Made by a program: the position numbers and the translations under genes. Source: a virus (taxonomy: Duplodnaviria; Caudoviricetes). Taken from it: a stretch of DNA of 64,000 nt. This document shows, piece after piece, positions 2,905 through 61,793 of this stretch; the first letter of the stretch is position 1; every line of letters starts with the position of its first letter. Where the stretch lies: positions 591 to 64,590 of the IMG/VR virus record IMGVR_UViG_2846797076_000002. The stretch is one strand, 5' to 3'. The notes beneath the pieces were generated by a model, which saw only the letters and a list, made by a program, of their open reading frames with translations, ran no database searches and was not told the origin of the DNA.

Positions 2905-2950
2905 GTCTCCTCAGTGGTGTGGTGGTTGACCGCCAGTTGGTGACTGGCGG
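2905..2950 (-). repeat. ACCA-hairpin/CACCAC/GAGGAGA leader copy
   Basis: mRNA: CCGCCAGU-CACCA-ACUGGCGG..CCACCACACCACUGAGGAGAC before ATG 2900. Confidence 0.8.
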
Positions 2951-3004
2951 GTTTGCTTTGGTTGAACTACAATTCAGATTAGACCGAACTGCAGGATATG
3001 ATTG

Positions 3005-3361
3005 ATGCGGATAACCATTGCTCTAGTGACGCTTATTTCTCTGAGTTCCGCTGCTTTTGCGGGACAAGTTACTGTTCAAAGCTCCATAGATTGTGCTCAG
3101 TGGGAGATATCAAGGAAATCCAACCGTTCGGCTGTTTTTGAATATTTTTTTATAGGGCTCATTAATGGCCTATCTGTTGGATCCGGTACCGAATTTTGGA
3201 AAGCCGAACCTGGAGAGCTAACACGAGATCAGGCTTTGCTATGGCTCGACAAGTACTGCGACAAAAACCCTCTTTCTGACATTTATCGCGGCACCATCTC
3301 CCTGATTAACGAGCATACGGGTGGAAGTTACGAACGACGGGTGTCCAGGCAATCCAACTAA
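3005..3361 (+). CDS. Secreted/periplasmic small protein (moron, HdeA/Rap1a-like Cys pair)
   Basis: Signal peptide ending AFA, two Cys, AT-richer, opposite strand to the operon. Confidence 0.65.
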   Translation: MRITIALVTLISLSSAAFAGQVTVQSSIDCAQWEISRKSNRSAVFEYFFIGLINGLSVGSGTEFWKAEPGELTRDQALLWLDKYCDKNPLSDIYRGTISLINEHTGGSYERRVSRQSN

Positions 3362-4611
3362 GCCACCGCCCTCGCCGGCTCATTGTCATTCGCGGCCGAA
3401 TACCGCCCGGCGACCATCTCCGGCCGCAGCGTGGCGCGAGCCACTTCGCCATACCTGCGCGAATATGTGATGACCTTGGCAGATCGACCAGAAAGCCAAC
3501 CTCCGCCAGCAGCATATGCATCAGGCGCGGCAAGCGTCTCATGGCGCTCGACATACATCAGCGCCGACTTGCGGCCTTCATCGCTGTGCAGGTGGCCGAC
3601 GTGGGCGAAGGCGTATTTCGAGCCGCCGAACATCTCACGGAACATGCCTGCGAGCGTCGCGTCGACCTGGGCCACGCCGCGCTTATGGCCGTGATGATAG
3701 AACAGCGCCGTGTCTCCCCACTTGTAGGCGTAGTAGAGCATCGGGCTGGTATCGACCGATACGCGCGGTTCATTCTCATAGATCGTCGCCAGAAGCTCGC
3801 GCACCCAGACAGATGAGGCTGGATCGTGGTTGCCCGAGGCCATAACGACATGAACGTGCTTGTGCTTCTGTAGCAGCATGTCGACGACACGGCGCAACGT
3901 GCGGATGACGACACGAACCACCTTATGCAGTCGGGAATCAGCATCGAGAACGTGCTTATGTGCCGGCGTGACGCTCTCAAGGGCGTCGTGGTGCAACAGG
4001 TCTCCGAGCTGCGCGAGAACGGCGGTGTGCGCCTGCGGAGCGCCAGCTACAGCGGCAGCAAACCAATCCAGCAGCAACTGCTCGGCAAGTCGGAGATCAT
4101 AGTCAGCGCCCGTCTCCTCGCGGTGAGCGAGCATTCCGAAATGGCTGTCGGTCACAACGAACTGGTTTAGCAGATCTTCCTCAACGTGTTGCGGCGCCGG
4201 CATGATGGTGATGCGCGGCAGGTCTTCTTTGAGGCTTTCGACCATTGCGCGAAAAGCCGCAAGCTGGCCTTCCGCTTCCACCGCAGTCTTCTGCCACTGC
4301 TGGATAACGCGCCCCTCGCCATCGACGAGAGCAGACACGCCTTTGACGACGTGCCCGGTCGGGACTTGAAACCGATCGCCGCGCTCCGGAACCTGCTGAA
4401 TGAAGGTGCCGCTCGGCGTGTTGCTGATGCGGTTGATGCGGAATCCTGGGAGGACAGGATCTGTGCCAAGCAGGCCAGCCTCAGCTGCCCGTTTGAGGCT
4501 TTCAGCAAGCGCCGACTTGCCGATACCAAGTGCTGCGGCTGCTTTGATCAGCGTGCCGTGCTCTCGATAGGCGTCGGCTCTTCGACGTAGTTCTTCGATG
4601 GGTAGAGGCAT
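3358..4611 (-). CDS. Calcineurin-like metallophosphoesterase with N-terminal HTH
   Basis: TDSHFG, LGDLLH, GNHD, HHGH, GHLH motifs; ends AANDNEPARAVA. Confidence 0.75.
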   Translation of the reverse strand: MPLPIEELRRRADAYREHGTLIKAAAALGIGKSALAESLKRAAEAGLLGTDPVLPGFRINRISNTPSGTFIQQVPERGDRFQVPTGHVVKGVSALVDGEGRVIQQWQKTAVEAEGQLAAFRAMVESLKEDLPRITIMPAPQHVEEDLLNQFVVTDSHFGMLAHREETGADYDLRLAEQLLLDWFAAAVAGAPQAHTAVLAQLGDLLHHDALESVTPAHKHVLDADSRLHKVVRVVIRTLRRVVDMLLQKHKHVHVVMASGNHDPASSVWVRELLATIYENEPRVSVDTSPMLYYAYKWGDTALFYHHGHKRGVAQVDATLAGMFREMFGGSKYAFAHVGHLHSDEGRKSALMYVERHETLAAPDAYAAGGGWLSGRSAKVITYSRRYGEVARATLRPEMVAGRYSAANDNEPARAVA

Positions 4612-4614
4612 GCA

Positions 4615-4657
4615 GTCTCCTCGATGTGGTGGTTAAGGCCGCTTGGTGGGCGGCCTT
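4615..4657 (-). repeat. ACCA-hairpin/CACCAC/GAGGAGA leader copy
   Basis: AAGGCCGC-CCACCAA-GCGGCCUU..CCACCACAUCGAGGAGAC. Confidence 0.8.
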
Positions 4658-4661
4658 GGTT

Positions 4662-4901
4662 TTAGCGGTGAGGGATGGGTCCGTGTTCACTGGGATAAGC
4701 AGTTTTCCCAAATACCCAGAATCCGATGAACCATTTGAGCTTGAAAGAAACACCGTACCAACGAGCTATCTCGTGGTCGGCGTAATCGTTCCGACCTTCT
4801 GTACTACTCCCCTTCGAAAGGAGCGTGCCAGTGTAGGCTCGGATCTTGGTTGGATTGTCCGGCGAGCCTTTGTGTATTCGAAGCCCTAGAAAGCTCATCA
4901 C
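4662..4901 (-). CDS. Hypothetical protein
   Basis: Overlaps stop of the protease gene. Confidence 0.5.
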   Translation of the reverse strand: MMSFLGLRIHKGSPDNPTKIRAYTGTLLSKGSSTEGRNDYADHEIARWYGVSFKLKWFIGFWVFGKTAYPSEHGPIPHR

Positions 4902-5560
4902 CCCACCCTCCCCAGCAACTCGCAGACCGCTGTCGAAGGCACAACAAAGCCATACCCGACAAGCGAGCCAGAGAAGCCAATCGGCGCAGCCATCACGCCG
5001 ACAGTTATGCCGATCAGGTCGCCGTTGTCCGCGTAGACTGGACCGCCGCTCTGGCCCATCACAGTCGTGATGTCGGTTACGTAGACGGACTTCCAGGGGC
5101 CTGTTTCGCGAGGATCGCCGGCAATCTTGCCGTAGGCCGCAACGAATTCGATTTTCAGGGGATTGCCGTAAGCGACGATAGGGTCGCCAGCCTTCACAGC
5201 GCGGCAGGCAAGCTTTGCAGATCCAAGGCCCACCGACGACGTGCGCAGCAGTGCAATGTCATTGGCCTTATTGACCCAAAGCACATCCGCCTTGCGGAAC
5301 TCGCCGCCCTTGGCTTTTACCTGGACGTCCTTAGCATCGCCGACGACGTGCGCAGCAGTGACGATGAAACCATCGCCGATATGAACGCCGGAGCCGTGGC
5401 CGTTTTCGAGCTGGATCTTAACGGTAGCCGTTTCGGTGGCTGGCAATGCTGGTGGAGGAAGGAGCGCGTAGGCGGCCGCAGAGGTCGCGGCGACAACAAG
5501 AAATAAAGCAACGAGGAATGCGCGTGGCGATACAATACGCCGCAGGAATCGTCTGAGCAT
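4898..5560 (-). CDS. Trypsin-like serine protease with signal anchor
   Basis: TAAHV, NDIALL, GQSGGP catalytic triad motifs. Confidence 0.9.
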   Translation of the reverse strand: MLRRFLRRIVSPRAFLVALFLVVAATSAAAYALLPPPALPATETATVKIQLENGHGSGVHIGDGFIVTAAHVVGDAKDVQVKAKGGEFRKADVLWVNKANDIALLRTSSVGLGSAKLACRAVKAGDPIVAYGNPLKIEFVAAYGKIAGDPRETGPWKSVYVTDITTVMGQSGGPVYADNGDLIGITVGVMAAPIGFSGSLVGYGFVVPSTAVCELLGRVG

Positions 5561-5566
5561 GATATC

Positions 5567-5632
5567 CCCTCTTTCTGGCGTCTTGCGCCAATGTGGTGGT
5601 CCCGGTTGGTTGCCGAGCGGCTGGTTAGGCCG
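5567..5632 (-). repeat. Variant leader copy (two AACCA-loop hairpins, CACCACA, AGAGGGGA)
   Basis: CGGC-CUAACCA-GCCG, CGG-CAACCAA-CCG, then CACCACA. Confidence 0.55.
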
Positions 5633-5638
5633 ATAATC

Positions 5639-5667
5639 AAGCTAAACTATTTTTACAAATTTGTCAA
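5639..5667 (-). promoter_or_regulatory. Sigma70-type promoter with ACAAATTTGT operator
   Basis: TTGACA-17bp-TAGCTT; palindrome at 5655-5664; near-identical copies at 48510 and 58809. Confidence 0.8.
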
Positions 5668-5703
5668 GATTTGAAGACTCCGCTTGACTCTCCCCAATAA
5701 TGA

Positions 5704-5718
5704 GAACATTTGTAGAAC
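5704..5718 (+). promoter_or_regulatory. Alphaproteobacterial LexA box
   Basis: GAAC-ATTTGTA-GAAC (GAAC-N7-GAAC) downstream of TTGACT at 5684, upstream of an operon containing SRAP. Confidence 0.7.
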
Positions 5719-5736
5719 AAACTTGGAGTAAGTAAG

Positions 5737-5976: not shown

Positions 5977-6049
5977 GTTCCTGGCGCGGGGGCGCGCGCC
6001 TTTCAAAGACAGGGAAAGATTTTTGGCTCTGAGACAGGAGAACGAGAAC

Positions 6050-6719: not shown

Positions 6720-6721
6720 GC

Positions 6722-7384: not shown

Positions 7385-7393
7385 GAGACGAAT

Positions 7394-7968: not shown

Positions 7969-8032
7969 TGGTGAACTCAAGACGTTCAGAGCGGAGGGTG
8001 CGCCGGCGGTTTTGCGGGCGGTGGAGACTGGG

Positions 8033-35084: not shown

Positions 35085-35087
35085 ATC

Positions 35088-35120
35088 GTCTCCCCTGTGG
35101 TGCTAGCGCTCGGTAGGCGC
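35088..35120 (-). repeat. Leader copy
   Basis: GCGC-CUACCGA-GCGC..CACCACAGGGGAGAC. Confidence 0.7.
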
Positions 35121-35122
35121 CG

Positions 35123-35593
35123 TTACTTTGTGTTGTCGTTATCGGCCAGCCAGCCTTTGACCAGTGCCACCGCCTTGCTGGCCGCTTCTGCCGTGGATGT
35201 GAACCGCACCACCTCGACTGGATGCCCTAGCCGAGCCAGCGAGGCGTGGCGCTCGACCTGCGCCGGAGATAGCCGGCCTTTACCAACCTTGTTCTCGATC
35301 ATCCGCAGCTTGCCGCCCTTGAGGTAAATCCGTAGATCGGCTTCGCCTGGCGTCAACCCGGTGGCTATAGCATCAGCTTGGGCACGTGGTCCGCGCTTGG
35401 CTGAATTCATGTCGCCAGCAAGCAGGAACTGGCGACCGTACTCCGGCAGCGACCGCAGGGTTCGCACTTGAGCCGCCTGCCCTTCGCTTTCCTTGATGGG
35501 TGCGTCAGCGACGCACACCTTGCCCTTGGCGCTCGTGCGGATGACGACGCGCTTGCCGTTGATGCGGGTGGTCTGGCTGGTGGCTTTGGGCAT
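35123..35593 (-). CDS. VRR-NUC domain nuclease
   Basis: GLTPGEADL, IENK..KGRLSPAQ. Confidence 0.8.
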   Translation of the reverse strand: MPKATSQTTRINGKRVVIRTSAKGKVCVADAPIKESEGQAAQVRTLRSLPEYGRQFLLAGDMNSAKRGPRAQADAIATGLTPGEADLRIYLKGGKLRMIENKVGKGRLSPAQVERHASLARLGHPVEVVRFTSTAEAASKAVALVKGWLADNDNTK

Positions 35594-35597
35594 GGCG

Positions 35598-35631
35598 GTC
35601 TCCTCGTGGTGCGGTGTCGTGGTGGCGACAC
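35598..35631 (-). repeat. Leader copy
   Basis: GUGUCG-CCACCA-CGACAC..CACCACGAGGAGAC. Confidence 0.8.
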
Positions 35632-35724
35632 ACATACTTTCCGAGAACGCGCCGAAAACGGGTAGTCGATTTGCGAAATATTTTTGGGCGTAAAAAAAGC
35701 CCCGCTTTCCGCGGGGCTGTGTAG

Positions 35725-36650: not shown

Positions 36651-37070
36651 ATGCGGGTTTGTGGGGTCGATATAAAATCAAAAGAAGCTATCGTCGTAAT
36701 CTGCGAGCCATCTTCGGGTGCTGCTAACGTGGTTGAGGCAAGTACAAAGCGAATAAAGTTGGATGACGGTGCTGATGGGCCTGCATTGAAGTCCATGAAG
36801 ATGGCTATAGACAGCTATTTACACGAGCAGAAGATTGACGTGGTGGTAATTAAGGAGCGAGCAACCGGGGCGATGGGTGCGTCGGGCGTCACATTTAAAA
36901 TTGAAGCCCTTTTTCAGATGTCTCACAACGATGTCGTGCTGGTCCACGGAAACACGCTCAGGAAGTTTGCAAAGAAGAACGTGGCGGGCGCCCCCGCCGG
37001 ATTAAACGCTTATCAGAAGGACGCGTTTACGTCTGCCGCTTGGCTCCTTAACGAAAAAGGACTCTTGTGA
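36651..37070 (+). CDS. DUF3010-like protein (RNase H-like fold predicted)
   Basis: MRVCGVDIKSKEAI, VVIKER..GASGVTFKIEALFQ. Confidence 0.75.
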   Translation: MRVCGVDIKSKEAIVVICEPSSGAANVVEASTKRIKLDDGADGPALKSMKMAIDSYLHEQKIDVVVIKERATGAMGASGVTFKIEALFQMSHNDVVLVHGNTLRKFAKKNVAGAPAGLNAYQKDAFTSAAWLLNEKGLL

Positions 37071-38143
37071 TTATCAATAGTCTGTCGGTCCCAGAGGACG
37101 TCAAGGTCGCACTTCGAGAGCTTGAGAAGCAAATTGAGTTTCATAAAGCCTCTGACAAGGGCCAGAATGGCCATGTTTTGTTTGGAACGAACCGAGTGCT
37201 CGGCCGACCAGACGTCGTTAAGCTGTACTACTGGGAGAGCGGCGACCACGCTGAACCAGAGTTGCTAGCAAAACTCGAACACCCTAACATTCTCAAAGTC
37301 TACCACGCCGCTTCGATTGATTTAGAATGGGCGTTCTTTACGACGAAGTTCTGTGACGGTGGTGATCTAGACACGGTTCTAGAAAAAGGCCCGCTTGGCT
37401 TGCGGGAGGCGGTTGACGCCGTCATGATGGTCGCAGCCGGTGTAAGTTATTTGCATGGGAATGGCTTCCTGCACCGAGATCTCAAGCTCGAAAATGTATA
37501 TCGAGACAACAATCAAATCGTAATAGGGGATTTTGGATCCGTCTCTCCATGCGACGCGCAGGGGCATTGCAAAACGTTAACCAGACACTCTCTGCTGTAC
37601 AGGCCACCCGAGGCTACGGTCACCAACGATTACTTTAAAGAAAGTGACGTTTACCAGTTGGGACTGATGCTCTTTCAGTTGTTAGGCGGATATCTGCCAT
37701 ATGATGAGCGCGACTGGCTGAGCAGCAAGCAGAAAACGGAATATGATGCCCTCAAGGGCACAATCGACAAAGGGGATTACGCCACCAAAATTATAGAAGA
37801 GAAGATCAACAAGGGGCGCCTTTTAGAAATGGACACTCTTCCTGCTTACGTGCCCAAACCCTTAGTCTCATTCATTAGAACGGCAACCCGCGTTGACAGA
37901 AACGGAAGGCATAAATCTGTCTCGGATTTCATAGCAGCACTAAATAATATGCAGCGCAAGATCCCCGATTGGAGACCTGAAGGCGATCATATCGTACTTC
38001 ACAGACCCAAAAAACGCATACGCGTAACATCTGGTGGCAGTAATTTCTCAATAGAAAAAGACGTCGGTAACGGCTGGAAGAGACAGCATAGCCTGAAGCC
38101 AACTACGATGGGCGCCGCCGTGGTCATGGCGGAAATGGTTTAA
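37067..38143 (+). CDS. Hanks-type Ser/Thr protein kinase
   Basis: VVKLY, HPNILKV, LHRDLKLEN, IGDFG, YRPPE, SDVYQLG. Confidence 0.92.
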   Translation: MIINSLSVPEDVKVALRELEKQIEFHKASDKGQNGHVLFGTNRVLGRPDVVKLYYWESGDHAEPELLAKLEHPNILKVYHAASIDLEWAFFTTKFCDGGDLDTVLEKGPLGLREAVDAVMMVAAGVSYLHGNGFLHRDLKLENVYRDNNQIVIGDFGSVSPCDAQGHCKTLTRHSLLYRPPEATVTNDYFKESDVYQLGLMLFQLLGGYLPYDERDWLSSKQKTEYDALKGTIDKGDYATKIIEEKINKGRLLEMDTLPAYVPKPLVSFIRTATRVDRNGRHKSVSDFIAALNNMQRKIPDWRPEGDHIVLHRPKKRIRVTSGGSNFSIEKDVGNGWKRQHSLKPTTMGAAVVMAEMV

Positions 38144-38228
38144 CAAAAAAGGCCGGTGCATCTCTGCCCCAGCCTTCCTGTAGCTATCGCGATCTGCCAG
38201 TACATCCGTGGTCAGCGCGCAAAGCTAT

Positions 38229-39305
38229 CTACTTCCGATACGCTAGACCGCCCCAGACGCGGCCCTCGTCCCGATGACGACCACCGTGGACTGCGCCGAT
38301 ATAGGCCGCAGCGGCGGATACAAGAGCCGAGGCAGCCAAGAGGAATGCGGTCAAGATTCCGGCAACCCGCGCCTTTTCAGCAGCATCAACGGCTTTTGCC
38401 TTAGCATCCTCCAGAGCTTTCTCAGTCTCAGCCCTGAGATCGTCGATTTTCTTTTGCGCTTCGTCGACCTTCTGCTGCGCCTGCGTTCGAACAGCCTGCA
38501 CCCTGTCTACCGTCTGGTTGACGCGTGTCTGCGCGTCAGGTTGGCTAATGCCGGTACGAGCTGCGACCTGATTAGTAAGCCAGGTACGATCAGCGTCGGA
38601 AATCTCTCCAGTCGAAAGAAGGTTGCTCAGAATCCCACCGGCTTGTCGCTGAAAATCTGCGCCGTTTTGATCGCCGTTAACCGCAGGCGTATCGGTTCGC
38701 AACAGAGTGTCGGTGAAATAGTCGATCGGATTTGCCTTCAACCCTTGCGGAAGAGCTTCCTCAATGCTGGGAGCCGCTGCCTGGCCGGCGCCTTGAGCGA
38801 CGCCACCAATAGCGTTACCGGCACCAGACACCACCCCACCGGCCAATTGGCCAACACCCTGGGCAGCTCCTCCGACCGCAGAGCCAGTCGCCTCGACGGC
38901 AGACTGCGCTACGCTTCCAACGGCCCTCGCGCCGCCGGACACCACGCTGAGAGCAAGAAATGCTGAAATGACGGTTCCAAGACCCCAAACAACGAGACCG
39001 TTGATGCCGTCGCGTGTCGTGAGCTCGTTACGGTCCGCCGATCCAGCTGGGCGCCGCATACGACCCGTAATGTAGCCGCCCAACATATAAGAGCCAACCA
39101 TCGAGATAACGACGAACAATCCTGTGATGATTAGCCAGATCACGCTTATATCACCGCCATCATCGGCCGATATGGAACTCAGCCCCAGACCTCCGGCAAA
39201 CGCGGTGAGGATGGCAACTGCGCCAGATGCTATGACGGTGCCCGCGAAAATGGCTGGCCAATCGACATAGCTGCGATTTGTTTCAGTACCGATAGGATCG
39301 ACCAT
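38229..39305 (-). CDS. Membrane protein with Ala/Gly/Gln-rich helical region (stress-type moron)
   Basis: SYVDWPAIFAG, GGYITGRMR, DGINGLVVWG. Confidence 0.75.
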   Translation of the reverse strand: MVDPIGTETNRSYVDWPAIFAGTVIASGAVAILTAFAGGLGLSSISADDGGDISVIWLIITGLFVVISMVGSYMLGGYITGRMRRPAGSADRNELTTRDGINGLVVWGLGTVISAFLALSVVSGGARAVGSVAQSAVEATGSAVGGAAQGVGQLAGGVVSGAGNAIGGVAQGAGQAAAPSIEEALPQGLKANPIDYFTDTLLRTDTPAVNGDQNGADFQRQAGGILSNLLSTGEISDADRTWLTNQVAARTGISQPDAQTRVNQTVDRVQAVRTQAQQKVDEAQKKIDDLRAETEKALEDAKAKAVDAAEKARVAGILTAFLLAASALVSAAAAYIGAVHGGRHRDEGRVWGGLAYRK

Positions 39306-39572: not shown

Positions 39573-39776
39573 TTACCAACCCTGACGACCATACCAGTCG
39601 TCGACGTCTTTTTTGGCCTGGTCCTTCGCATAGCCATAGCGCTCCTGGATTTTGCCTTCCAGCTGCTCGCGCTTGCCATTGATGACGTCAAGGTCGTCGT
39701 CAGTGAGTTTGCCCCACTGCTCCTTGACCTTGCCCTTCATCTGCTTCCAGTTACCTTCTACGCGGTTCCAATCCAT
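39573..39776 (-). CDS. csbD: CsbD/YjbJ general stress protein
   Basis: MDWNRVEGNWKQMKGKVKEQWGKLTDDDL..GKIQERYG. Confidence 0.95.
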   Translation of the reverse strand: MDWNRVEGNWKQMKGKVKEQWGKLTDDDLDVINGKREQLEGKIQERYGYAKDQAKKDVDDWYGRQGW

Positions 39777-43944: not shown

Positions 43945-43952
43945 GAGTTTTC

Positions 43953-43997
43953 TCTCCTCTGTGGTGGTGAGCCAGCGCCGATTGGTGGTCGACGCTG
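43953..43997 (-). repeat. Leader copy
   Basis: CAGCGUCGA-CCACCAA-UCGGCGCUG..CACCACCACAGAGGAGA. Confidence 0.8.
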
Positions 43998-46950: not shown

Positions 46951-46958
46951 GTTGTTTT

Positions 46959-47026
46959 GTCTCCTCAGACTGTGGTGTTCCCGCCGAAGCGGGACGCCGC
47001 GTTGGTGGCGCGGCGGGTGGTGTGGT
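46959..47026 (-). repeat. Leader copy
   Basis: CGCCGCG-CCACCAA-CGCGGCG..CACCACAGUCUGAGGAGAC. Confidence 0.8.
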
Positions 47027-48462: not shown

Positions 48463-48467
48463 TCTCA

Positions 48468-48500
48468 TCTCCTCAATGTGGTGACGCCATTGGTCTGGCG
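48468..48500 (-). repeat. Leader copy
   Basis: CGCCA-GACCAA-UGGCG-U-CACCACAUUGAGGAGA. Confidence 0.75.
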
Positions 48501-48509
48501 CAGAACATA

Positions 48510-48538
48510 AAGCTAAACCGTTTTTACAAATTTGTCAA
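48510..48538 (-). promoter_or_regulatory. Sigma70-type promoter with ACAAATTTGT operator
   Basis: TTGACA-17bp-TAGCTT. Confidence 0.8.
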
Positions 48539-48540
48539 GA

Positions 48541-50303: not shown

Positions 50304-50582
50304 ATGGACCTTTCTTGGTGGGCAGACTTTTTTGCGGTGATTGGGCTAGCGCTGACGGCTATTGGCGCAGGCTTGACCGCTAGATCGGTCATTCTTACCG
50401 AAGCAGAAGCAGCAACTATTGGCGTGTCTCGATATGCGCCCGAGACGCACGAGCAGGCATTGCAACTCCCGCACGTCCAGTCGTTACTTAAGTCATCGCG
50501 GGGCGCAAAACGGGGCCTAGTCATTGTGTCGGTTGGTACGGTCCTACAGATCGCCGTACCTTTCTTCAGGCTATTTCTCTAA
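50304..50582 (+). CDS. Small two-TM protein (moron)
   Basis: Hydrophobic termini; opposite strand. Confidence 0.5.
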   Translation: MDLSWWADFFAVIGLALTAIGAGLTARSVILTEAEAATIGVSRYAPETHEQALQLPHVQSLLKSSRGAKRGLVIVSVGTVLQIAVPFFRLFL

Positions 50583-51115
50583 CTAGCCTCCCGTAGCAGC
50601 CCAAGCACCCTCGCCCGCTCCTTAATAACGATCTGGCGCACGCGCTCCTTTGTGAGGCCGTGGTCGTTGCCAATGGCTTCCAGCGTCTCGCCCATCGCCC
50701 TGCGCATCAACATCGCGCCATTGCGGCCTTCCAGCAAAGAGACAACACGAGTCAAGTCGGTGCCCTCCTCCTGATGCGGATCGGTAGAGCCCGGCATCTC
50801 GTCGAATGCCGAGAGACTGCAAATTTCGGCAGAGCGCGACTTCGTGGAATTGGTGCGGACAAATTCCTGAGCAGTGCCTCGAACGCAAAGGACGGCCCAC
50901 GTCCAGAAGGTCTCAAGGCGACATTCGCGGTGCCGGCGCAACATGACGACCATCGCTGACTGAAACAGCTCGTCGGCCGCGTCCTCGTTCTTGGTGATCT
51001 TTCGCGCCAGTCTTCGCAAGGCCGGCTCGTAGGCCAGAAGCTTGCGGTCGAACTCGGGACTGCGCGGATTGTTGTCGTTGGCAGCGACAAGCGGCGTGCG
51101 TGCTACAAGCGGCAT
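50579..51115 (-). CDS. ECF-like sigma factor / sigma70 region 2+4 protein
   Basis: LRRLARKIT.NEDAADELFQ, GETLEAIG...LTKERVRQI. Confidence 0.8.
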   Translation of the reverse strand: MPLVARTPLVAANDNNPRSPEFDRKLLAYEPALRRLARKITKNEDAADELFQSAMVVMLRRHRECRLETFWTWAVLCVRGTAQEFVRTNSTKSRSAEICSLSAFDEMPGSTDPHQEEGTDLTRVVSLLEGRNGAMLMRRAMGETLEAIGNDHGLTKERVRQIVIKERARVLGLLREAS

Positions 51116-51119
51116 GATG

Positions 51120-51156
51120 GTCTCCTCATGTGGTGTGGTCAGGCGTTGGTGGCGCC
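51120..51156 (-). repeat. Leader copy
   Basis: GGCG-CCACCAA-CGCC..ACCACACCACAUGAGGAGAC. Confidence 0.8.
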
Positions 51157-52355: not shown

Positions 52356-52358
52356 CGG

Positions 52359-53411: not shown

Positions 53412-53415
53412 GGGC

Positions 53416-53469
53416 GTCTCCTTGGCGATGTGTGGTGGTGCCTGCCGTGGTGAGCGGCAGGCGGTGGTG
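53416..53469 (-). repeat. Leader copy
   Basis: CACCACC-GCCUGCCG-CUCACCA-CGGCAGG-CACCACCACAC..AAGGAGAC. Confidence 0.75.
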
Positions 53470-54306
53470 TTAGGCTGCGAAAGAGAACGGCGACTGCTTC
53501 TTGGGCGGCTCGTAGCCGATCGGATAGCCGCAGCCATCCTCGCCTTCATCGTAACGGGTCGCGTCGAACGGCTGGCCCTTCAGCTCAGCAATCTTCTTGA
53601 ACAGACCAATAGCGCTGCCTGGCTGATCCTCGTTGTCGTTTGCGACCCACGATTCCTTGCCTTCGTCGTCGACAGTCAGTGCAGCGATTGCCGCGTCCAG
53701 AGAGAAAGGCGTGCCTTCTGTGCCGAGAACGACCTTCTCGCCATAAGCGCCGCCGATCTGGTCTTTCAGCTCTTCCCACGTGTCGATTTTCACCTTGCGG
53801 CCAGCCAACACAATCTTGAGAATGTCGCCCTTACCGATCGTATAGCCGCGATCCTGATACTTGAGAACGCGCGTTGCCGACGCCAGCGGGTAACGGGTAC
53901 CTGGATGGAATCGCAGGAAGCGCTGGGAGTTGTGTTTCAGGAAGTCGTTGTGGAATGAGAATTCATCGGTGTCGAAGTCCAGTGCGCCCATAACGACAGT
54001 GAAGTCGAACGCGTCGAAGATGTCCTGTGCTGTCGGGAAGTAGTCGAAGTGCATGAACTGGATTGGCGTTCCGCCACTCTCAGCAAATGTCACGGCACGC
54101 TTTGTCGTGGAAACGCACCAGAACCCATCCTCATACGCCTGCGCCACGGCATATTCGAAAGCCTCCCGGCTCTTGAAGTAGACGTCTACGTCGTTGATGT
54201 CTCGATTGGTGAAGACGCTCGTCACCGCTCCGCCAGCCGCGAATGCGCCGGGGATCGGGTAGCATTTCTCCGTAATCTTTCTGGCTTCCGCCTTGTAGTT
54301 CGTCAT
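53470..54306 (-). CDS. Pol-beta-superfamily nucleotidyltransferase-like protein
   Basis: AAGGAV....DINDVDVYF, FDFTVVMGA, RVLKYQDRGY. Confidence 0.7.
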   Translation of the reverse strand: MTNYKAEARKITEKCYPIPGAFAAGGAVTSVFTNRDINDVDVYFKSREAFEYAVAQAYEDGFWCVSTTKRAVTFAESGGTPIQFMHFDYFPTAQDIFDAFDFTVVMGALDFDTDEFSFHNDFLKHNSQRFLRFHPGTRYPLASATRVLKYQDRGYTIGKGDILKIVLAGRKVKIDTWEELKDQIGGAYGEKVVLGTEGTPFSLDAAIAALTVDDEGKESWVANDNEDQPGSAIGLFKKIAELKGQPFDATRYDEGEDGCGYPIGYEPPKKQSPFSFAA

Positions 54307-54311
54307 GCAAA

Positions 54312-54358
54312 TCTCCTCAAACGTGGTGATATAGCGGGCCGCTGGTGAGGCAGCCCGC
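54312..54358 (-). repeat. Leader copy
   Basis: GCGGGCUGC-CUCACCA-GCGGCCCGC..CACCACGUUUGAGGAGA. Confidence 0.8.
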
Positions 54359-54369
54359 GTTGGTGTGGG

Positions 54370-54948: not shown

Positions 54949-54953
54949 GCGTA

Positions 54954-54978
54954 GTCTCCTTGTGGTGTGATTTGGTGG
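54954..54978 (-). repeat. Leader copy (no ACCA-loop hairpin seen)
   Basis: CCACCAAAUCACACCACAAGGAGAC. Confidence 0.7.
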
Positions 54979-55130
54979 TTAGCGGAGGTAATAGCGGAAA
55001 GGTCCGCTACCGAATTGCGTCGATGCCTGATCGCGCCAGACATGAGTAAGCCAAACCCAAATGAGTTGGCCGGAGCGGGTGCGGGCTTTTACCGGGTGCC
55101 ACGCGAACCACGATTCGCCTCGGAACATGG

Positions 55131-55904: not shown

Positions 55905-55908
55905 AAGG

Positions 55909-55927
55909 CCTCCTCAGTGTGGTGGTG
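55909..55927 (-). repeat. Leader copy (no hairpin seen)
   Basis: CACCACCACACUGAGGAGG. Confidence 0.65.
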
Positions 55928-55993
55928 CGGTGAGAATGATGGCGGCGATGTAGGCGGCGGCTACAATGACGATCAGCCACCGCCAGTTTCTGA

Positions 55994-56672: not shown

Positions 56673-56676
56673 TTGT

Positions 56677-56724
56677 GTCTCCTCAATGATGTGGTGAAGA
56701 GCGGCTGGTTGGTAGCCAGCCGCT
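56677..56724 (-). repeat. Leader copy
   Basis: AGCGGCUGG-CUACCAA-CCAGCCGCU..CACCACAUCAUUGAGGAGAC. Confidence 0.8.
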
Positions 56725-56732
56725 AGCGCTGC

Positions 56733-58162: not shown

Positions 58163-58407
58163 TCGAGACCCTCCGGCTTGATCATCCGTGGATATGCAAA
58201 GGGATGAGCGCAATTGTCGTCAGGGATGATGATTACAAACATATCATCACCAAGAGTGCTGATACCTGGCATGCCGCCGTTCTCAGCAACGATGTGCTCG
58301 CGCTGGATAGTGAAAACGTCAGCCGTAGGAAAGAACCCGCGGCCTTCGTATTTCCACTTCCCGCTCTCCTTGAAATACAGGTACGTGCAGTCCTCTTGCC
58401 GGGTCAT
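58159..58407 (-). CDS. Hypothetical protein
   Basis: YFKESGKWKYEG; ATGA overlaps. Confidence 0.6.
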   Translation of the reverse strand: MTRQEDCTYLYFKESGKWKYEGRGFFPTADVFTIQREHIVAENGGMPGISTLGDDMFVIIIPDDNCAHPFAYPRMIKPEGLE

Positions 58408-58754
58408 GCTGTCACCCCACGCAGTGCGTAGTCGTTGACCGCCTGCCCGGCCTGCAAGTCAGCATCGTCGATGTTGTCATTTGCGGCGGTAAGAACGCGC
58501 GGCAGCGAAACCGGCATGAGGCCAGAAAGTGTGGAGCAGCCGCCGTTGTGCGGCGCCAAGTGCGTCGTGCGGTCTGTATTGTTGTCATTGGCTGGGATGA
58601 AGGCGCGCTGCTTGTGCAGGCCGTATGCGCGCCGCAGCCGCTGGTATGCGGCCATTGGCTTGACGTTGTGTCTGGCGGCAATATCTGCGACGCTCTCACC
58701 GTTTTCACGGCGCGCGTGCATATCCGCCAGCATAGTGCTGGTGATAAGCGTCAT
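58404..58754 (-). CDS. HTH-containing small protein with two ANDN motifs
   Basis: GESVADIAARHNV; first gene after promoter 58837. Confidence 0.65.
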   Translation of the reverse strand: MTLITSTMLADMHARRENGESVADIAARHNVKPMAAYQRLRRAYGLHKQRAFIPANDNNTDRTTHLAPHNGGCSTLSGLMPVSLPRVLTAANDNIDDADLQAGQAVNDYALRGVTA

Positions 58755-58757
58755 GTC

Positions 58758-58799
58758 GTCTCCTCTGAGTGGTGGCCGCCTCGTGGTTGACAAAGCGAC
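58758..58799 (-). repeat. Leader copy
   Basis: GUCGCUUUG-UCAACCA-CGAGGCGGC (G-U pairs only on mRNA strand)-CACCACUCAGAGGAGAC. Confidence 0.75.
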
Positions 58800-58808
58800 A
58801 GGGTTGTG

Positions 58809-58837
58809 AAACTAAACTATTTTTACAAATTTGTCAA
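58809..58837 (-). promoter_or_regulatory. Sigma70-type promoter with ACAAATTTGT operator
   Basis: TTGACA-17bp-TAGTTT. Confidence 0.8.
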
Positions 58838-58860
58838 GATTTCCTCCGGAGTTACAGGGT

Positions 58861-59463
58861 ATGCCTGAGATTAAATCGCGCCTCCTGCAGTCGATCTTGA
58901 AAGAGCAAAAGCGTAGAGCCGTAAAGGATCGCGCTGTGTACGAAGAGCTAGGCGTGCCTCAGCAGACCTACAGCACCTGGAAGGCTGGCGTCATCCCAAG
59001 ACCTAGGCAATTCCCGGCGATTGCCGCCTTCCTGGGTGTCTCCGAAGATGACGTGGCAGAGATGGCTCGCGAGGCGGCAGAAACCGCTCCTTCCATCACG
59101 CCTATTACGGTTGCCCGCACCTATGGCAAAATCTCCGACCGCAAGGCTGGCAAGTTCAAATTCGAGCCCATCAACGACGGCCGCAAACGCATTCCCGAAG
59201 GCCGTTACGCCATCGTCATCGACACGAAGGTGATGGAGCCCGTCTTCCACGTCGGCGTGAAAGCGTGGCTTGACCCTTCCCGCTGGCCAGCCGTTGGTGA
59301 CGACGTGCTCGCGCATTCGGGCGGATTCGCTTGGATCGGACGATTTGAAGGAATGAGCAACGGCGCTGTTCAGCTTAGCCGCTACGATGGATCGCAGCTT
59401 GAAGTGAAGAACGTGGAAGCTGTTCATGTCATCGTCCTTTCGGAGCGGGTGGCTACGGCGTAG
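58861..59463 (+). CDS. XRE-family HTH regulator with degenerate S24-like C-terminal domain
   Basis: ELGVPQQTYSTWKAG, IAAFLGVS; MEPVF..G...WLDP without a clear catalytic Ser/Lys. Confidence 0.75.
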   Translation: MPEIKSRLLQSILKEQKRRAVKDRAVYEELGVPQQTYSTWKAGVIPRPRQFPAIAAFLGVSEDDVAEMAREAAETAPSITPITVARTYGKISDRKAGKFKFEPINDGRKRIPEGRYAIVIDTKVMEPVFHVGVKAWLDPSRWPAVGDDVLAHSGGFAWIGRFEGMSNGAVQLSRYDGSQLEVKNVEAVHVIVLSERVATA

Positions 59464-59487
59464 CAGGTTGGTTGCCTGCATTGGCAC

Positions 59488-59516
59488 TTGACAATTCCTA
59501 CAAATTTGTGTAGGAA
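59488..59516 (+). promoter_or_regulatory. Sigma70-type promoter with ACAAATTTGT in spacer, driving predicted sRNA
   Basis: TTGACA-17bp-TAGGAA; palindrome 59500-59509. Confidence 0.65.
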
Positions 59517-59522
59517 ACTGAC

Positions 59523-59653
59523 TGTCCGATGTGGTGTCGGATATGGAACACGCGCTTTGATCCCGCCTTACGGCGAAGGTCTCCTCGGCGTGTTAGTACG
59601 GAGAAGGGGCGGAGTTACGGGTGGTGCCGGCTCATTACGCCCCTTTTCGTTTT
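59523..59653 (+). ncRNA. Predicted three-hairpin antisense sRNA complementary to the repeated leaders
   Basis: UGUCCGA-UGUGGUG-UCGGAUA; AACACGC...GGUCUCCUCG-GCGUGUU; GAGAAGGGGCG..CGG-GUGGUG-CCG..CGCCCCUUUUC + U tail; G-U pairs favour + strand. Confidence 0.65.
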
Positions 59654-59737
59654 ATGCTGCATGCACGACAACGCCGGCAGAGCTTCATGCTCCACCGGCG
59701 CTAAGTTTTGGAAGTCATTATTTGCGGTCTTTCTCAT
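59615..59737 (-). CDS. 40-aa hypothetical peptide
   Basis: GGGGAGAC SD, MRKTANNDFQN; 3' end antisense to the predicted sRNA. Confidence 0.45.
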   Translation of the reverse strand: MRKTANNDFQNLAPVEHEALPALSCMQHKTKRGVMSRHHP

Positions 59738-59793
59738 AGTCGTCTCCCCTTCTGGCATTATTGATTTTGTTATCGCCAGTTGGTTTCTGGCGC

Positions 59794-59919
59794 TTACGGC
59801 GGCCCGGTCACTGGCCGCCATCTTCTTCTGCGCTCGGGCGCCTCATGCACCCATCTTCTTCTCGCGGTCATCGCTTGGGTCGTTGACCGTCTTCTTTCGG
59901 AGTCTTTCATCACGCGCAT
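59794..59919 (-). CDS. 41-aa Arg-rich peptide (not in ORF track)
   Basis: MRVMKDSERRRSTTQAMTARRRWVHEAPERRRRWRPVTGPP; first plausible ORF after the leftward promoter. Confidence 0.3.
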   Translation of the reverse strand: MRVMKDSERRRSTTQAMTARRRWVHEAPERRRRWRPVTGPP

Positions 59920-59990
59920 TTCCCTTTCATTTGCAGTTTCGTCTTTCGGGTCTTTTGCCCTGCCGGCTTCTGTCTGGCCGCTGTTGATTC

Positions 59991-60034
59991 ACAAACTAAC
60001 ACAAACAAATTTTAGGTCAATAAGTTTGTTTGTG
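59991..60034 (-). promoter_or_regulatory. Leftward early promoter/operator region divergent from cI
   Basis: TTGACC-16bp-TAGTTT; inverted CACAAACAAA...TTTGTTTGTG. Confidence 0.65.
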
Positions 60035-60055
60035 CAAATGCGTTATTTTTGCTAA

Positions 60056-60871
60056 ATGATTGTGGAAACTAGGGATAAAGTGATGGAAACGGCCCTTACA
60101 CGCCTCCTCAACGAAAAACTTCGTGAAAAGTTTGACGGCAACGCCAGCGAGCTCGCTCGAGTCGTGGGGACCAGTCAGCAGAACATCAGCAACTGGTTGA
60201 ATGGGGATGTTATCAAACCTTCCTATTGGAAAGTGGCGGCGCGTGCTCTTGGTCTGCGAGAAATAGAACTCGACTCAATTATGCTGGCGGTTCGAAGGGA
60301 TGCAGGACCCGATCTCCCCGCGGAGGCATGGGTACGAGATCTGGGCTTTCGAAAAATGCCACACACTGAGGAGGAAGTCCCCGATTCCGATGATCGGATC
60401 CCTCTGCTGCGGCCCACTCGGCAGGCGCCAAACGCCACCGTTGCGCCCCGCCAACAGATTGTAACAACGAACAAAATGCTTCCCGTTCTTGGCATGGCCG
60501 TCGGGGGTGAGGATGGCCGTTACATATTCAATGGTAGTGTGATCGACTATGTTGTCTGCCCTCCGTCTTTAGAGAACGTAGCGGGAGCCTATGCGGTCTA
60601 TATTGATGGCGAGTCGATGTATCCTCGATTTAAGGCTGGCGAGACCGTGTGGGTCCACCCAGGTAAGCCAGCTCGTCGAGGCGACGACGTGATTGTGCAG
60701 CTCAAACCTATAGAAGACGACGGCTCTCCCCCTTGGGGCTACGTCAAAGAGTACGTCGGCAGGCAGGGCAACAACCTGGTTCTCCGGCAGTACAATCCAC
60801 CAATCGAGATCCAGTTTGACGTCAACGAGGTTCTGACGACTCACCCGATCGTACTGGCCGGAAAATACTAA
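60056..60871 (+). CDS. CI-like repressor (HTH + S24 autopeptidase)
   Basis: SELARVVGTSQQNISNW, AVGG, GESMYP, YVKEY. Confidence 0.9.
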   Translation: MIVETRDKVMETALTRLLNEKLREKFDGNASELARVVGTSQQNISNWLNGDVIKPSYWKVAARALGLREIELDSIMLAVRRDAGPDLPAEAWVRDLGFRKMPHTEEEVPDSDDRIPLLRPTRQAPNATVAPRQQIVTTNKMLPVLGMAVGGEDGRYIFNGSVIDYVVCPPSLENVAGAYAVYIDGESMYPRFKAGETVWVHPGKPARRGDDVIVQLKPIEDDGSPPWGYVKEYVGRQGNNLVLRQYNPPIEIQFDVNEVLTTHPIVLAGKY

Positions 60872-60872
60872 A

Positions 60873-60926
60873 AATCACAAATTTACAAACTTTGTGATTG
60901 ACGCTCAAAGTTTGTAGGTCTATATC
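60873..60926 (+). promoter_or_regulatory. Rightward promoter/operator
   Basis: AATCACAAA..TTTGTGATT inverted repeat, TTGACG-17bp-TATATC, ACAAA/TTTGT half-sites. Confidence 0.7.
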
Positions 60927-60931
60927 TCCTC

Positions 60932-60971
60932 TTGCAACCAGCAAACCCAGCTGGCCACCACAAGAGGAGAC
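60932..60971 (+). repeat. Leader copy on + strand
   Basis: UUGC-AACCA-GCAA..CCACCACAAGAGGAGAC. Confidence 0.75.
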
Positions 60972-60976
60972 TACCA

Positions 60977-61330
60977 ATGTACAGACCACGTCCTGAAGAG
61001 TTTGACGACGTCGCCGTTGCCGCCCAGTCCGATGAGCCTATGAAGCGCCCGGACCACAAGGCCAAGAAGCACGGCAAGCCCAAGACGAAATATGAGTACA
61101 TGCGCCGCTTCCCCAAGAAGACGCGTAACGGCGAGGAAGTCGGCGGCGGCCACTTCGTATTCCGCCGTGGCGACAGCACTGGACGCATTCGTCCCTGCAT
61201 GTGGCCCTTCGAGCACCCCTCCTATGATTCTGCGCTGGTCGAAGCCGCGCGCCTGCACTCTGAGTACGGCGGCACCTTTGAAGTCTTCGTTCGCGTCGGC
61301 AGCGTCGAGGCGCTTGAGGCCGGCGAATGA
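60977..61330 (+). CDS. Hypothetical basic protein
   Basis: Leader/SD; PFEHPSYDSALVEAARL. Confidence 0.7.
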   Translation: MYRPRPEEFDDVAVAAQSDEPMKRPDHKAKKHGKPKTKYEYMRRFPKKTRNGEEVGGGHFVFRRGDSTGRIRPCMWPFEHPSYDSALVEAARLHSEYGGTFEVFVRVGSVEALEAGE

Positions 61331-61467
61331 GCGCGGCAGCGTTGACGCGCAATAAGCTAAGCGTCCAGCAGATCATACTTTCCGAACACGCAGGGCTTCT
61401 GAAGGACATCGCCGGTTTTCTGGCGCTGTCGCTCTTCATCGCGGCTCTGCTCATCTGGGCTTACTGA
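61327..61467 (+). CDS. 46-aa membrane peptide
   Basis: ATGA overlap, C-terminal TM. Confidence 0.45.
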   Translation: MSAAALTRNKLSVQQIILSEHAGLLKDIAGFLALSLFIAALLIWAY

Positions 61468-61468
61468 G

Positions 61469-61759
61469 ATGTCGACCGCTGTTAAGCCGCCCTTCATGGG
61501 CGAAGCGATGCAGGAGTTCGTCTTCTGCATCGAGAAGTACGGCGAATACACTTTCGACAACGACCATCGCGCTCGTCTGATTGCCGAAAGCAAATCATTT
61601 GAAGAGTTGCGCGCCCTTCTCTCAGCTTTCGAAAACCTGGTCGATGGCGAGGCTAAGGAAGAGACGTTGGACGATCTCGCTCGCCACCTTGGCACTCCAG
61701 TACCTCGGCTAGATCGCATGATGCGCTGGCCGTGGGACGAAGAATTCGAGCCAAACTGA
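61469..61759 (+). CDS. Hypothetical protein
   Basis: ORF track, operon position. Confidence 0.55.
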   Translation: MSTAVKPPFMGEAMQEFVFCIEKYGEYTFDNDHRARLIAESKSFEELRALLSAFENLVDGEAKEETLDDLARHLGTPVPRLDRMMRWPWDEEFEPN

Positions 61760-61761
61760 AA

Positions 61762-61793
61762 CACCACCCACCACCACACCACATCGAGGAGAC
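61762..61793 (+). repeat. Leader copy on + strand with tandem CACCAC
   Basis: CACCACCCACCACCACACCACAUCGAGGAGAC. Confidence 0.8.

Follow-up and report, generated by a model that had tools for sequence, protein, structure and literature searches.

Why should one and the same short leader stand in front of about 17 non-structural genes of a single phage, and what, if anything, reads it there? The question is raised by the 64.0 kb stretch of DNA analysed here (hereafter the window), which is taken from a 64.59 kb virus record (IMG/VR IMGVR_UViG_2846797076_000002) and belongs to an Agrobacterium-type temperate phage; the closest named phage is Rhizobium phage 16-3. A preliminary description of this DNA had noted a hairpin with an ACCA loop, a CACCAC(A) motif and a GAGGAGA Shine-Dalgarno (SD) sequence just ahead of these genes, and had proposed that together they form a common post-transcriptional control site, to be read by a small RNA (sRNA) encoded at position 59523, by a CsrA-style RNA-binding protein, by an N-like antiterminator or by a processing nuclease. 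On comparative grounds we lean towards the reading that the element is a modular C/A-rich translation leader which doubles as the common target of an sRNA encoded in the immunity region of the phage (59523-59653, +).

The leader itself is readily established. All 17 sites that had been listed are on the coding strand, and 5-12 nt further on an ATG or GTG begins an open reading frame (ORF) of 70-542 codons; the claim of a leader shared by about 17 non-structural genes therefore stands in full. The strict pattern CACCAC-N0-9-GGAG is matched 16 times in the window against 1.25 expected (sd 1.09, largest 5; 100 dinucleotide shuffles), and 15 of the 16 matches are sites of the preliminary description. 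Two listed sites escape this pattern, that at 53416 by its 10-nt spacer and that at 5567 as a variant with a second hairpin between CACCAC and an AGAGGGG SD. The only strict match outside the listed sites (30833-30848, -) lies within a late gene with no called start behind it and is probably due to chance. Hairpins with a perfect stem and an ACCA loop are likewise in excess: the window has 36 (27 on the - strand and 9 on the +, each nested version of a hairpin entering the count), and 30 block shuffles gave 11.1 +/- 3.5 with a maximum of 19. Chance or base composition as the source of the leader is thus ruled out by both shuffles.

Three parts make up the leader: a G+C-rich hairpin with a variable stem and a loop of 6-7 nt in which (C)(C/U)ACCA(A) is retained, an unpaired tract poor in U and G that contains CACCAC(A), and an extended SD, GAGGAGAC. 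When a hairpin is required to have 4 or more contiguous pairs, 3 or more of which are G-C, and a loop of 5-9 nt with ACC[AG], 13 of the 17 sites possess one. Their loops are CACCA, CCACCAA (four times), CAACCAA, CTACCGA, CCACCA, GACCAA, CTCACCA (twice), CTACCAA and TCAACCA, all on unrelated stems, so that the conserved loop on unrelated stems reported earlier holds for these 13; the sites before the starts at 54948, 55904, 60977 and 61798 have no hairpin of this kind. Predicted RNA folds of the leaders show the hairpin with a 7-nt loop, CACCAC unpaired and the SD largely open. Over the 17 leaders the A+C content is 0.52-0.80 and that of T 0.06-0.20, which places a C/A-rich, G/U-poor tract directly 5' of the SD. 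The hairpins are not intrinsic terminators, a role ruled out by the C/A tracts, instead of U- or T-runs, that come after them. Nor are the leaders promoters: three of the 17 stand downstream of a promoter with TTGACA and the palindrome ACAAATTTGT, and these three promoters are the real early-type ones, while the other leaders showed no -35/-10 in the sequences read (the promoter scan covered 58300-61100).

The distribution of the leader follows gene class. Among 78 crudely called genes (49 non-structural and 29 late), CACCAC lies no more than 34 nt from the start in 16 of the 49 and in 1 of the 29, the single late instance being a partial copy before the capsid gene at 28558; the late module had indeed been said to hold only partial copies. 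When the count is confined to genes separated from their upstream neighbour by 35 nt or more, the motif is present in 15 of 33 non-structural genes and in none of 14 late ones, and the early genes without a leader mostly overlap or abut the gene before them. The host-derived morons had been described as lacking the leader, and this was borne out by the CsbD-like and Ser/Thr protein-kinase cargo genes, neither of which has CACCAC; the CsbD-like stress protein gene (39573-39776, -) does have a GAGGAGA SD, and the kinase gene lies at 37067-38143 (+). We consider it somewhat probable, taking this jointly with the sRNA as its reader, that the element is a modular translation-initiation leader peculiar to the phage and present in almost all of the larger intergenic gaps of the early, replication and recombination operons.

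Is the leader a habit of the host that the phage has simply adopted? A 5.3 Mb Agrobacterium lysogen genome (G001), which carries a 98%-related prophage, allows the comparison. The pattern CACCAC-N0-9-GGAG-N3-11-ATG is matched 36 times in that genome, 17 of them within the prophage (C10:512087-561269), which occupies ~50 kb or ~1% of the genome; a reversed control pattern gave 5 matches. From 400 kb of the same chromosome 369 genes were called, 116 of them with a GGAG SD. None of these 116 host leaders has CACCAC, as against 90 of 182 Rhizobiaceae-clade phage leaders, and GGAGAC is found in 11 of the 116 as against 75 of the 182. Mean A+C at -32..-12 is 0.63 in phage and 0.54 in host leaders, and of the hairpins ahead of an SD, 2 of 136 have an ACCA loop in the host as against 8/25, 26/54, 12/50, 10/44 and 7/37 in the phage groups. 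The motif is concentrated in the lysogen's prophage and missing from the host GGAG leaders, and a host origin is accordingly ruled out; CACCAC before an SD is far from equally common in host or late genes.

The leader is instead a trait of a large phage family that includes 16-3 and many prophages of the Rhizobiales. The family as meant here comprises 16-3-like phages together with prophages of Agrobacterium, Rhizobium, Sinorhizobium, the Ochrobactrum/Brucella group and further Rhizobiales. In phage 16-3 itself there are 16 distinct CACCAC-SD sites, of which 15 stand immediately ahead of an ATG, and prophage loci of Agrobacterium, Rhizobium and Neorhizobium show 6-10 such sites on the gene strand for every ~20 kb. 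Where positions are orthologous, the stems have been swapped for unrelated ones and the loops stay CCACCAA, CUACCAA, CAACCA or CUCACCA. The earlier proposal of a common post-transcriptional site is thus upheld as regards an element that is specific for non-structural genes, absent from the host and found family-wide; for the mechanism by which the site would be read, we can offer only the inferences developed below.

The candidate reader is a gene of ~131 nt (59523-59653, +) situated between a helix-turn-helix (HTH) gene and a CI/LexA-like gene. Its promoter (59488-59516, +), which was read from the sequence and was not listed by a simple consensus scan, consists of TTGACA and TAGGAA on either side of a 17-nt spacer that holds the palindrome ACAAATTTGT (59500-59509), and its end is a G+C stem followed by UUUUCGUUUU, with a U-run to 59653. 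In the predicted fold, stem-loop 1 (SL1, 59524-59542) presents a GUGGU loop, SL2 carries the anti-SD GGUCUCCUCGG (59578-59588), largely in an interior loop, and SL3, with the apical sequence CGG-GUGGUG-CCG (59618-59629), is together with the U-run the terminator.

Homologues in close relatives are 90-99% identical, and the copy of phage 16-3 sits between p069 and p070, on the minus strand of that phage at about 36925 to 36780. The 10-mer GGGTGGTGCC occurs in 84 of 114 related loci, and 66 distinct sRNA-like segments result once an upstream CTCCT is required; three loci without the 10-mer (L143, L151 and L124) have sRNA variants with compensated tips, CAG/CUG or CGA/UCG. In the sRNAs of the Brucellaceae clade, 19 of the 35 predicted pairs show compensatory changes, and the many G-U pairs fix the strand of the RNA; those of the Agrobacterium clade have the same fold. 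Alignments within clades were needed, as MAFFT and RNAalifold applied to both clades together gave 3 pairs only. When a covariance model was trained on the Brucellaceae clade only, it recovered the window copy over its full length (59519-59649, 56.6 bits, E=5e-10) as its one match in the window. The lysogen genome has a single copy, inside the prophage, and none was found in 150 other genomes sampled from the order (strict filters, 22 candidates scored per genome). At least 119 IMG/VR stretches match CTCCTC-N20-50-CGGGTGGTGCCG, that is the anti-SD plus SL3, with one match each among the matches listed; 55 are left after architecture filters, and some of those removed are probably chance matches. 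At 59.5 kb of the window, and at the homologous loci of phage 16-3 and of Brucella pseudogrignonensis (L129), no Rfam family, C4 included, was matched at E<=1. A coding explanation for the invariant CGGGTGGTGCCG is ruled out, given that the frames and stops of the opposite strand differ among relatives and that the G-U pairs fix the RNA strand. By its promoter, terminator and covarying structure, all predicted from sequence comparison, the sRNA is a real, conserved structured RNA gene.

Two neighbours of this gene deserve description. The isolated hairpin that had been recorded at 59463-59479 is present just after the stop of the HTH gene, with a UUGGUUG loop on the transcribed strand (+); lying 3' of a + strand gene's stop, it would be transcribed with this loop, the complement of the leader loops, and relatives have GUGGUGG or UUGGUG loops at the same position. 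Convergent with the sRNA, and overlapping its terminator, is a small - strand ORF (59615-59792; 41 codons from the ATG at 59740) with a leader-like hairpin (AAACCAA loop, 59773-59792) and a GGGGAGAC SD; a promoter-like - strand site lies at 60038-60009.

What connects sRNA and leader is, in the first place, their complementarity. The UGGUG present in two sRNA loops and the unpaired GUCUCCUC complement the CACCA of the leader loop, the CACCAC of the tract and GAGGAGAC. The sRNA columns that are invariant or nearly so over both clades are GUGGU, CUCCUC and CGGGUGGUGCCG, and the predicted probability of being unpaired in the window sRNA is 0.77 for the UGGUG of SL1, 0.80 for CUCCU and ~0.9 for the loop of SL3. 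Of the 12 hexamers most enriched in leaders, the sRNA contains the reverse complements of 9, compared with 0.85 for shuffled sequences (9 was attained by 11 in 20000 shuffles), and by this score it ties for first among the genome stretches not antisense to a start; the second stretch scoring 9 (2132-2269, +) was discarded as merely the antisense of a Pro/Thr-rich coding stretch. Co-folding with the sRNA gave -8.4 kcal/mol for motif leaders vs -4.0 for other translation-initiation regions (p=5e-6), the host value being -4.7.

The second connection is that the flanks of SD and anti-SD change jointly between clades. In the Rhizobiaceae the sRNAs have GUCUCCUC and the leaders GAGGAGAC, the SD being extended on its 3' side (GAGGAG-AC: A 58%, C 56%). 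In the Brucellaceae the sRNAs have CCUCCUCGUGU (CCUCCUC-GUGU) and the leaders ACACGAGGAG(G); here the SD is extended on its 5' side (A53 C65 A58 C43 before GAGGAG), with G favoured after it. Anti-SD pairing is accordingly stronger within a clade than across clades (-16.4 vs -13.7 and -16.2 vs -15.35 kcal/mol), and the mean Watson-Crick extension past the core is 2.05 for own vs 1.06 for cross pairings in the Rhizobiaceae and 3.31 vs 1.58 in the Brucellaceae, with 0.90 and 0.54 for host leaders. When more lineages are included, the own context does better in 16 of 18 loci than the others do on average, and in 9 it takes first or second place. The AC that follows GGAG is not known to add pairing to the 3' end of 16S rRNA and GAGGAGAC is not favoured by the host, so something else would constrain it.

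A third connection lies in the promoters. The palindrome ACAAATTTGT has exactly 4 copies in the window (5655, 48526, 58825 and 59500), all in TTGACA-type promoters. Three of these promoters stand ahead of leader-bearing operons: at 5655-5664 the palindrome is part of an early-type promoter, at 48526-48535 it overlaps the -35 of an early-type promoter, and at 58825-58834 it overlaps the -35 of the leftward early promoter. The fourth copy is the one between the -35 and -10 of the sRNA promoter. The same arrangement of palindrome and promoter, TTGACAAATTTGTAAAA, is present in phage 16-3, and the palindrome differs from the annotated 12- and 14-bp operators of the 16-3 C repressor. That one palindrome is shared by the sRNA and early promoters makes co-regulation of the sRNA with its presumed targets plausible.

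Taken together, these features suggest the following mechanism. The unstructured C/A tract and the strong SD would ensure efficient loading of the 30S subunit on each internal cistron, the hairpin would insulate neighbouring cistrons from one another, and possession of a common leader would make all these cistrons one post-transcriptional regulon. Binding of the sRNA might nucleate through loop-loop or loop-tract contacts between its UGGUG and the CACCA of a leader; pairing of the anti-SD GUCUCCUC with the SD GAGGAGAC would then follow and block the ribosome, so that one sRNA could damp the translation of ~17 early cistrons together. Were the sRNA switched on with its targets, the outcome would be a delayed feedback, a timing that is speculative. 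A broader formulation, that the phage family runs its whole early programme as an RNA-addressed regulon in which the portable leader is the tag, the sRNA the reader, and the two co-evolve, we hold more tentatively and would place a little short of probable.

Several observations weigh against such an sRNA-based reading. The control on co-folding energy failed: with the 17 leaders, sRNA sequences shuffled at matched composition gave -9.32 +/- 2.60 kcal/mol, the real sRNA -8.43, so that the shuffles do as well. C/A-rich leaders will pair with any RNA rich in G and U, and the real sRNA has to pay for its own structure; thermodynamics alone shows no specificity of the pairing. The contacts are also short, 5-6 bp in the loops and 7-9 bp at the SD. 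In the Ochrobactrum/Brucella-group loci the exact CACCAC-SD arrangement occurs only 0-1 times per ~20 kb; these loci keep C/A-rich leaders (...CCAACCAAACACACAC-GAGGAG) and ACCA-loop hairpins. Two loci, L320 and L340, do not fit the co-variation, and since the leaders under comparison are homologous to one another, the p-values are inflated and independence is overstated; the co-variation comes down to a few clade-level events. A leader-rich locus (L138) gave no sRNA within the 15.5 kb examined. The only RNA libraries found are contigs of a 90-95% identical relative (four runs of one study); they reach 59653 in 2 of the 4 runs, as contigs from which ends, strand and level are not readable and in which DNA carry-over is possible. 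Finally, a permuted form of the sRNA, found in L124 (7021-7175, -), L162 and L170, has the order anti-SD, GUGGUG loop, GUGGUG-tipped terminator. Its retention of the anti-SD and of both GUGGUG loops argues that these modules are the functional parts. Its anti-SD stretch is also the exact antisense of GAGGAGACC-ATG and of a 31-codon ORF. The sRNA may thus have begun as an inverted leader, and a number of its copies may work in cis, as antisense to a small gene, and not in trans.

One rival reading is that the leader is a cis-acting cassette only, composed of a C/A-rich enhancer or standby site and an insulating or stabilising inter-cistronic hairpin, with no dedicated trans-factor. The sRNA would then act elsewhere, on host genes or on the small ORF convergent with it, and would owe its complementarity to the leaders incidentally to base composition or to an origin as an inverted leader, as the behaviour of the shuffled G/U-rich RNAs and the exactly antisense anti-SD of the permuted form respectively suggest. 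The tract and SD are predicted to be open and the leaders are poor in U (0.06-0.20), and C/A-rich and ACA elements 5' of the SD are reported to enhance translation in enterobacteria (PMC3879156). Such a cassette leaves four things unexplained: the retention of the ACCA loop amid the drift of the stems, the joint change of SD and anti-SD flanks between clades, the exact match of the invariant unpaired positions of the sRNA to the leader, and the extension to GAGGAGAC, which is not known to pair better with the 16S tail and whose GGAGAC is used in only 11 of 116 host leaders. We therefore judge a purely cis-acting cassette unlikely, although to be taken seriously. The sRNA at 59523 is the only one of the readers proposed in the preliminary description with positive evidence in its favour, namely a conserved structured gene, complementarity and clade co-variation, and the leader as its common target remains the reading that we prefer.

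The leaders also appear, from the comparison of relatives, to mark where gene cassettes are gained or lost. Contigs of a close relative join 53416 to 54312, skipping 895 nt with 6 shared letters at the joint, and further joints end at 56678, 60950 and 61761, all of them leader sites. Five relatives (L121, L159, L161, L157 and L162) lack the cassette at 54306, and its upstream hairpin is fused in them to the SD and start of the clamp gene. These joints and fusions would suit a mainly evolutionary role, in which the ~20-30-nt leader is a portable homology patch for cassette swaps by the Sak4-type annealase; a similar idea has been put forward for the PeSL cassettes of T4-type phages (PMC2839356, PMC4122927). 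Yet an indel of a whole gene will have its ends in intergenic DNA in any case, shuffling is only weakly selected by comparison with expression, and a homology patch needs neither an ACCA loop on a variable stem nor strand specificity, a fixed distance to the start or a matching sRNA, for which reasons we regard this role as improbable. The boundary role is more likely a consequence than a cause, with the corollary that a cassette inserted behind a leader would inherit its control.

Might a protein, instead of an RNA, read the ACCA loop and/or CACCAC? A RegA-like repressor, a CsrA-style protein, an N-like antiterminator, Rho or a processing nuclease can each be envisaged, given that recognition of RNA by proteins typically goes with a constant loop on a changing stem, that the C-rich, G-poor tracts resemble rut sites and that many small early ORFs have no family assignment. 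The individual candidates fare poorly. GGA, the core of CsrA recognition, is present in none of the 13 loops, which speaks against the CsrA-style reader suggested at the outset, and the N-like antiterminator fares no better, since one copy per cistron does not fit nut; no boxA-like partner was noted either, no pattern search for the boxA/boxB consensus having been made. At 4-9 bp the stems are short for RNase III, RNase E would find poor sites in tracts with so little U, and tracts of ~15-25 nt are well below the usual length of rut for Rho. A scan of 39 different window proteins, a subset of the ORFs, found no RNA-binding domain among them, a weak argument. Any protein reader would also leave the complementary sRNA unexplained, and we think there is little chance that a protein is what the leader serves.

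On the - strand the leftmost leaders belong to a MazG-like pyrophosphatase gene (2901-2952, start 2900; CACCA(A)-loop hairpin, CAACCACCACACCAC, GAGGAGAC) and a DNA repair exonuclease gene (4612-4658, start 4611; 8-bp hairpin with CCACCAA loop, AACCACCACA, GAGGAGAC). The variant leader of a protease-like gene (5561-5625, start 5560; CAACCAA-loop hairpin, CACCACA, second hairpin, AGAGGGG SD) lies downstream of the promoter and palindrome at 5655. Beyond the virion module come a leader at 35085-35125 (start 35084; CTACCGA-loop hairpin, CACCACA, GGGGAGAC) and that of a nuclease-like gene at 35594-35632 (start 35593; CCACCA-loop hairpin, CACCAC, GAGGAGAC). Both methyltransferase genes are so equipped, the first being a DNA methyltransferase gene (43945-43995, start 43944; CCACCAA-loop hairpin, CACCACCACA, GAGGAGAG), the second having a GTG start at 46950 and an additional UUCG-loop hairpin between its CCACCAA-loop hairpin and CACCACA, before GAGGAGAC (46951-47016). 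The leader at 48463-48501 (start 48462; GACCAA-loop hairpin, CACCACA, GAGGAGAT) opens the first gene after the promoter and palindrome at 48526, and that of the sigma-factor gene (51116-51156, start 51115) has a 4-bp hairpin with a CCACCAA loop, CCACACCACA and GAGGAGAC.

Still on the - strand, the sliding-clamp leader (53412-53463, start 53411) consists of an 8-bp hairpin with a CTCACCA loop, CACCACCACACA and AAGGAGAC, the spacer being 10 nt, and its neighbour at 54307-54360 (start 54306) of a 9-pair hairpin with the same loop, CACCAC and GAGGAGAT. No ACCA-loop hairpin precedes the SSB-like gene (54949-54990, start 54948; AACCACCAAATCACACCACA, AGGAGAC), and no hairpin the Sak4-like annealase gene (55905-55935, start 55904; CACCGCACCACCACAC, GAGGAGG). 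An 8-9-bp hairpin with a CTACCAA loop, CACCACA and GAGGAGAC form the leader at 56673-56725 (start 56672). The first gene of the leftward early operon has a weak AACCA-loop hairpin, CCACCAC and GAGGAGAC (58755-58800, start 58754), with the promoter and palindrome at 58825 just upstream. Two leaders are on the + strand. That of the first rightward gene (60925-60976, start 60977) has CCACCACAA and GAGGAGAC; in its predicted fold (60925-60970; minimum free energy -22.1 kcal/mol, z=-5.0) the SD is sequestered in a 10-bp stem, UCUCCUCUUG / CAAGAGGAGA, and CCACCAC is in the enclosed loop region. This SD-locking stem is a cis anti-SD that is absent from the other leaders. The last leader (61757-61797, start 61798) is a hairpin-less C/A run, ACACCACCCACCACCACACCACA, followed by GAGGAGAC.

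The genes served by these leaders are those of an early phage programme. PHROG and Pfam scans place on the - strand, at ~35-58.8 kb and below 5.6 kb, the replication and recombination genes (primase/polymerase, helicase, sliding clamp, SSB-like protein, Sak4-like annealase and exonuclease), the two methyltransferases and a sigma factor; the virion module occupies ~11-34 kb, and the immunity region, with an HTH gene and a CI/LexA-like HTH+S24 gene, 58.8-60.9 kb. The Sak4-like protein has 98% identity to Agrobacterium prophage copies and 80-86% to those of the Ochrobactrum/Brucella group and other Rhizobiales. The sigma-70-family (ECF-like) phage factor gene (50579-51115, -), which has a full leader in front, is a candidate driver of late transcription. 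Two matches to other sRNA families were recorded. The alphaproteobacterial sRNA ar35 of Rfam matches the window at 38142-38239 (-) with 45.3 bits (gathering score 45; E=2.9e-05 for the whole window), between the Ser/Thr protein-kinase gene and a 427-codon ORF without a family match. In the Brucella pseudogrignonensis locus, Rfam ar14 matches at L129:16820-16942 (-) with 78.6 bits, ~10 kb from the sRNA; this could be cargo of either the host or the prophage.

No description of the leader or of the sRNA was found in the literature on rhizobiophage 16-3, on Agrobacterium prophage small RNAs or on the motif strings, although supplementary sRNA lists may hold it. A 2025 review of phage sRNAs has no mention of rhizobia, Agrobacterium or Brucella, and the phage antisense RNAs it treats (c4, sar, OOP, aQ, VpdS, PreS and 24B_1) have single targets or act on host genes (PMC12197685). 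If the preferred reading is true, one small RNA would address a whole temporal gene class by way of a common modular leader, a task for which T4 uses the proteins RegA and RegB, and an unrecorded sRNA family would be added. It would also provide a mechanistic handle on early shut-off and immunity in 16-3, a classical model, and in prophages of plant- and animal-associated Rhizobiales. Cassette shuffling would be linked to regulon membership, any cassette behind a leader joining automatically, and the co-evolution of tag and reader could give rise to an RNA-based hetero-immunity between phage lineages. The leader is, moreover, a ready-made, host-orthogonal expression tag for the Rhizobiaceae.

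How does this system compare with those already known? It belongs to none of the GcvB, c4, RegA/RegB or PeSL families, there being no Rfam match, an RNA as the candidate reader and no promoter-terminator unit. Its closest counterparts in mechanism are the GcvB-silenced enhancers and c4, and in role RegA and RegB. In phage T4, early mRNAs are under the global control of RegA, a translational repressor, and RegB, an endoribonuclease that acts on GGAG in early SDs. The likeness is that many early phage mRNAs would be controlled through their translation-initiation regions; the readers of T4 are proteins, whereas the candidate here is an RNA and its target a composite leader. The nut site of lambda, boxA plus boxB, occurs once per operon near the promoter and has a GNRA-like pentaloop. 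It too sets a conserved-loop hairpin beside a conserved single-stranded motif on early transcripts, but the leaders come one per cistron, in 17 copies that abut the SD, with ACCA loops of 5-7 nt.

Among immunity-region RNAs, the CI RNA of satellite P4 is comparable. The c4 antisense RNA of P1 and P7 is reported to act on one operon, ant (PMC12197685). Its resemblance to the sRNA is a functional one and on our side predicted: a small RNA of the immunity region with complementary stretches in loops, whose pairing around the ribosome-binding site would block translation. In contrast to c4, the sRNA has ~17 dispersed leaders as presumed targets, a promoter and terminator of its own and no match to Rfam C4. 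The PeSL elements are described as cassettes of a promoter and a stem-loop terminator at the boundaries of gene insertion, deletion and replacement in T4-type phages (PMC2839356, PMC4122927). They share with the leaders the character of repeated intergenic stem-loops at the edges of gene indels between close relatives, but the leaders are without -35/-10 or U-run, and are translational elements inside polycistronic operons. In enterobacteria, the sRNA GcvB is reported to use its G/U-rich region to silence C/A-rich (ACA) enhancers 5' of the SD (PMC3879156). There, as in the phage, a C/A-rich unstructured element right 5' of the SD is complementary to an exposed G/U-rich part of a multi-target sRNA. 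The phage version differs in that both partners are encoded by the phage and the presumed targets are its own early cistrons, in that the target adds a hairpin loop and the SD and the sRNA an anti-SD and two loops, and in that the two sRNAs have no sequence or Rfam relationship.

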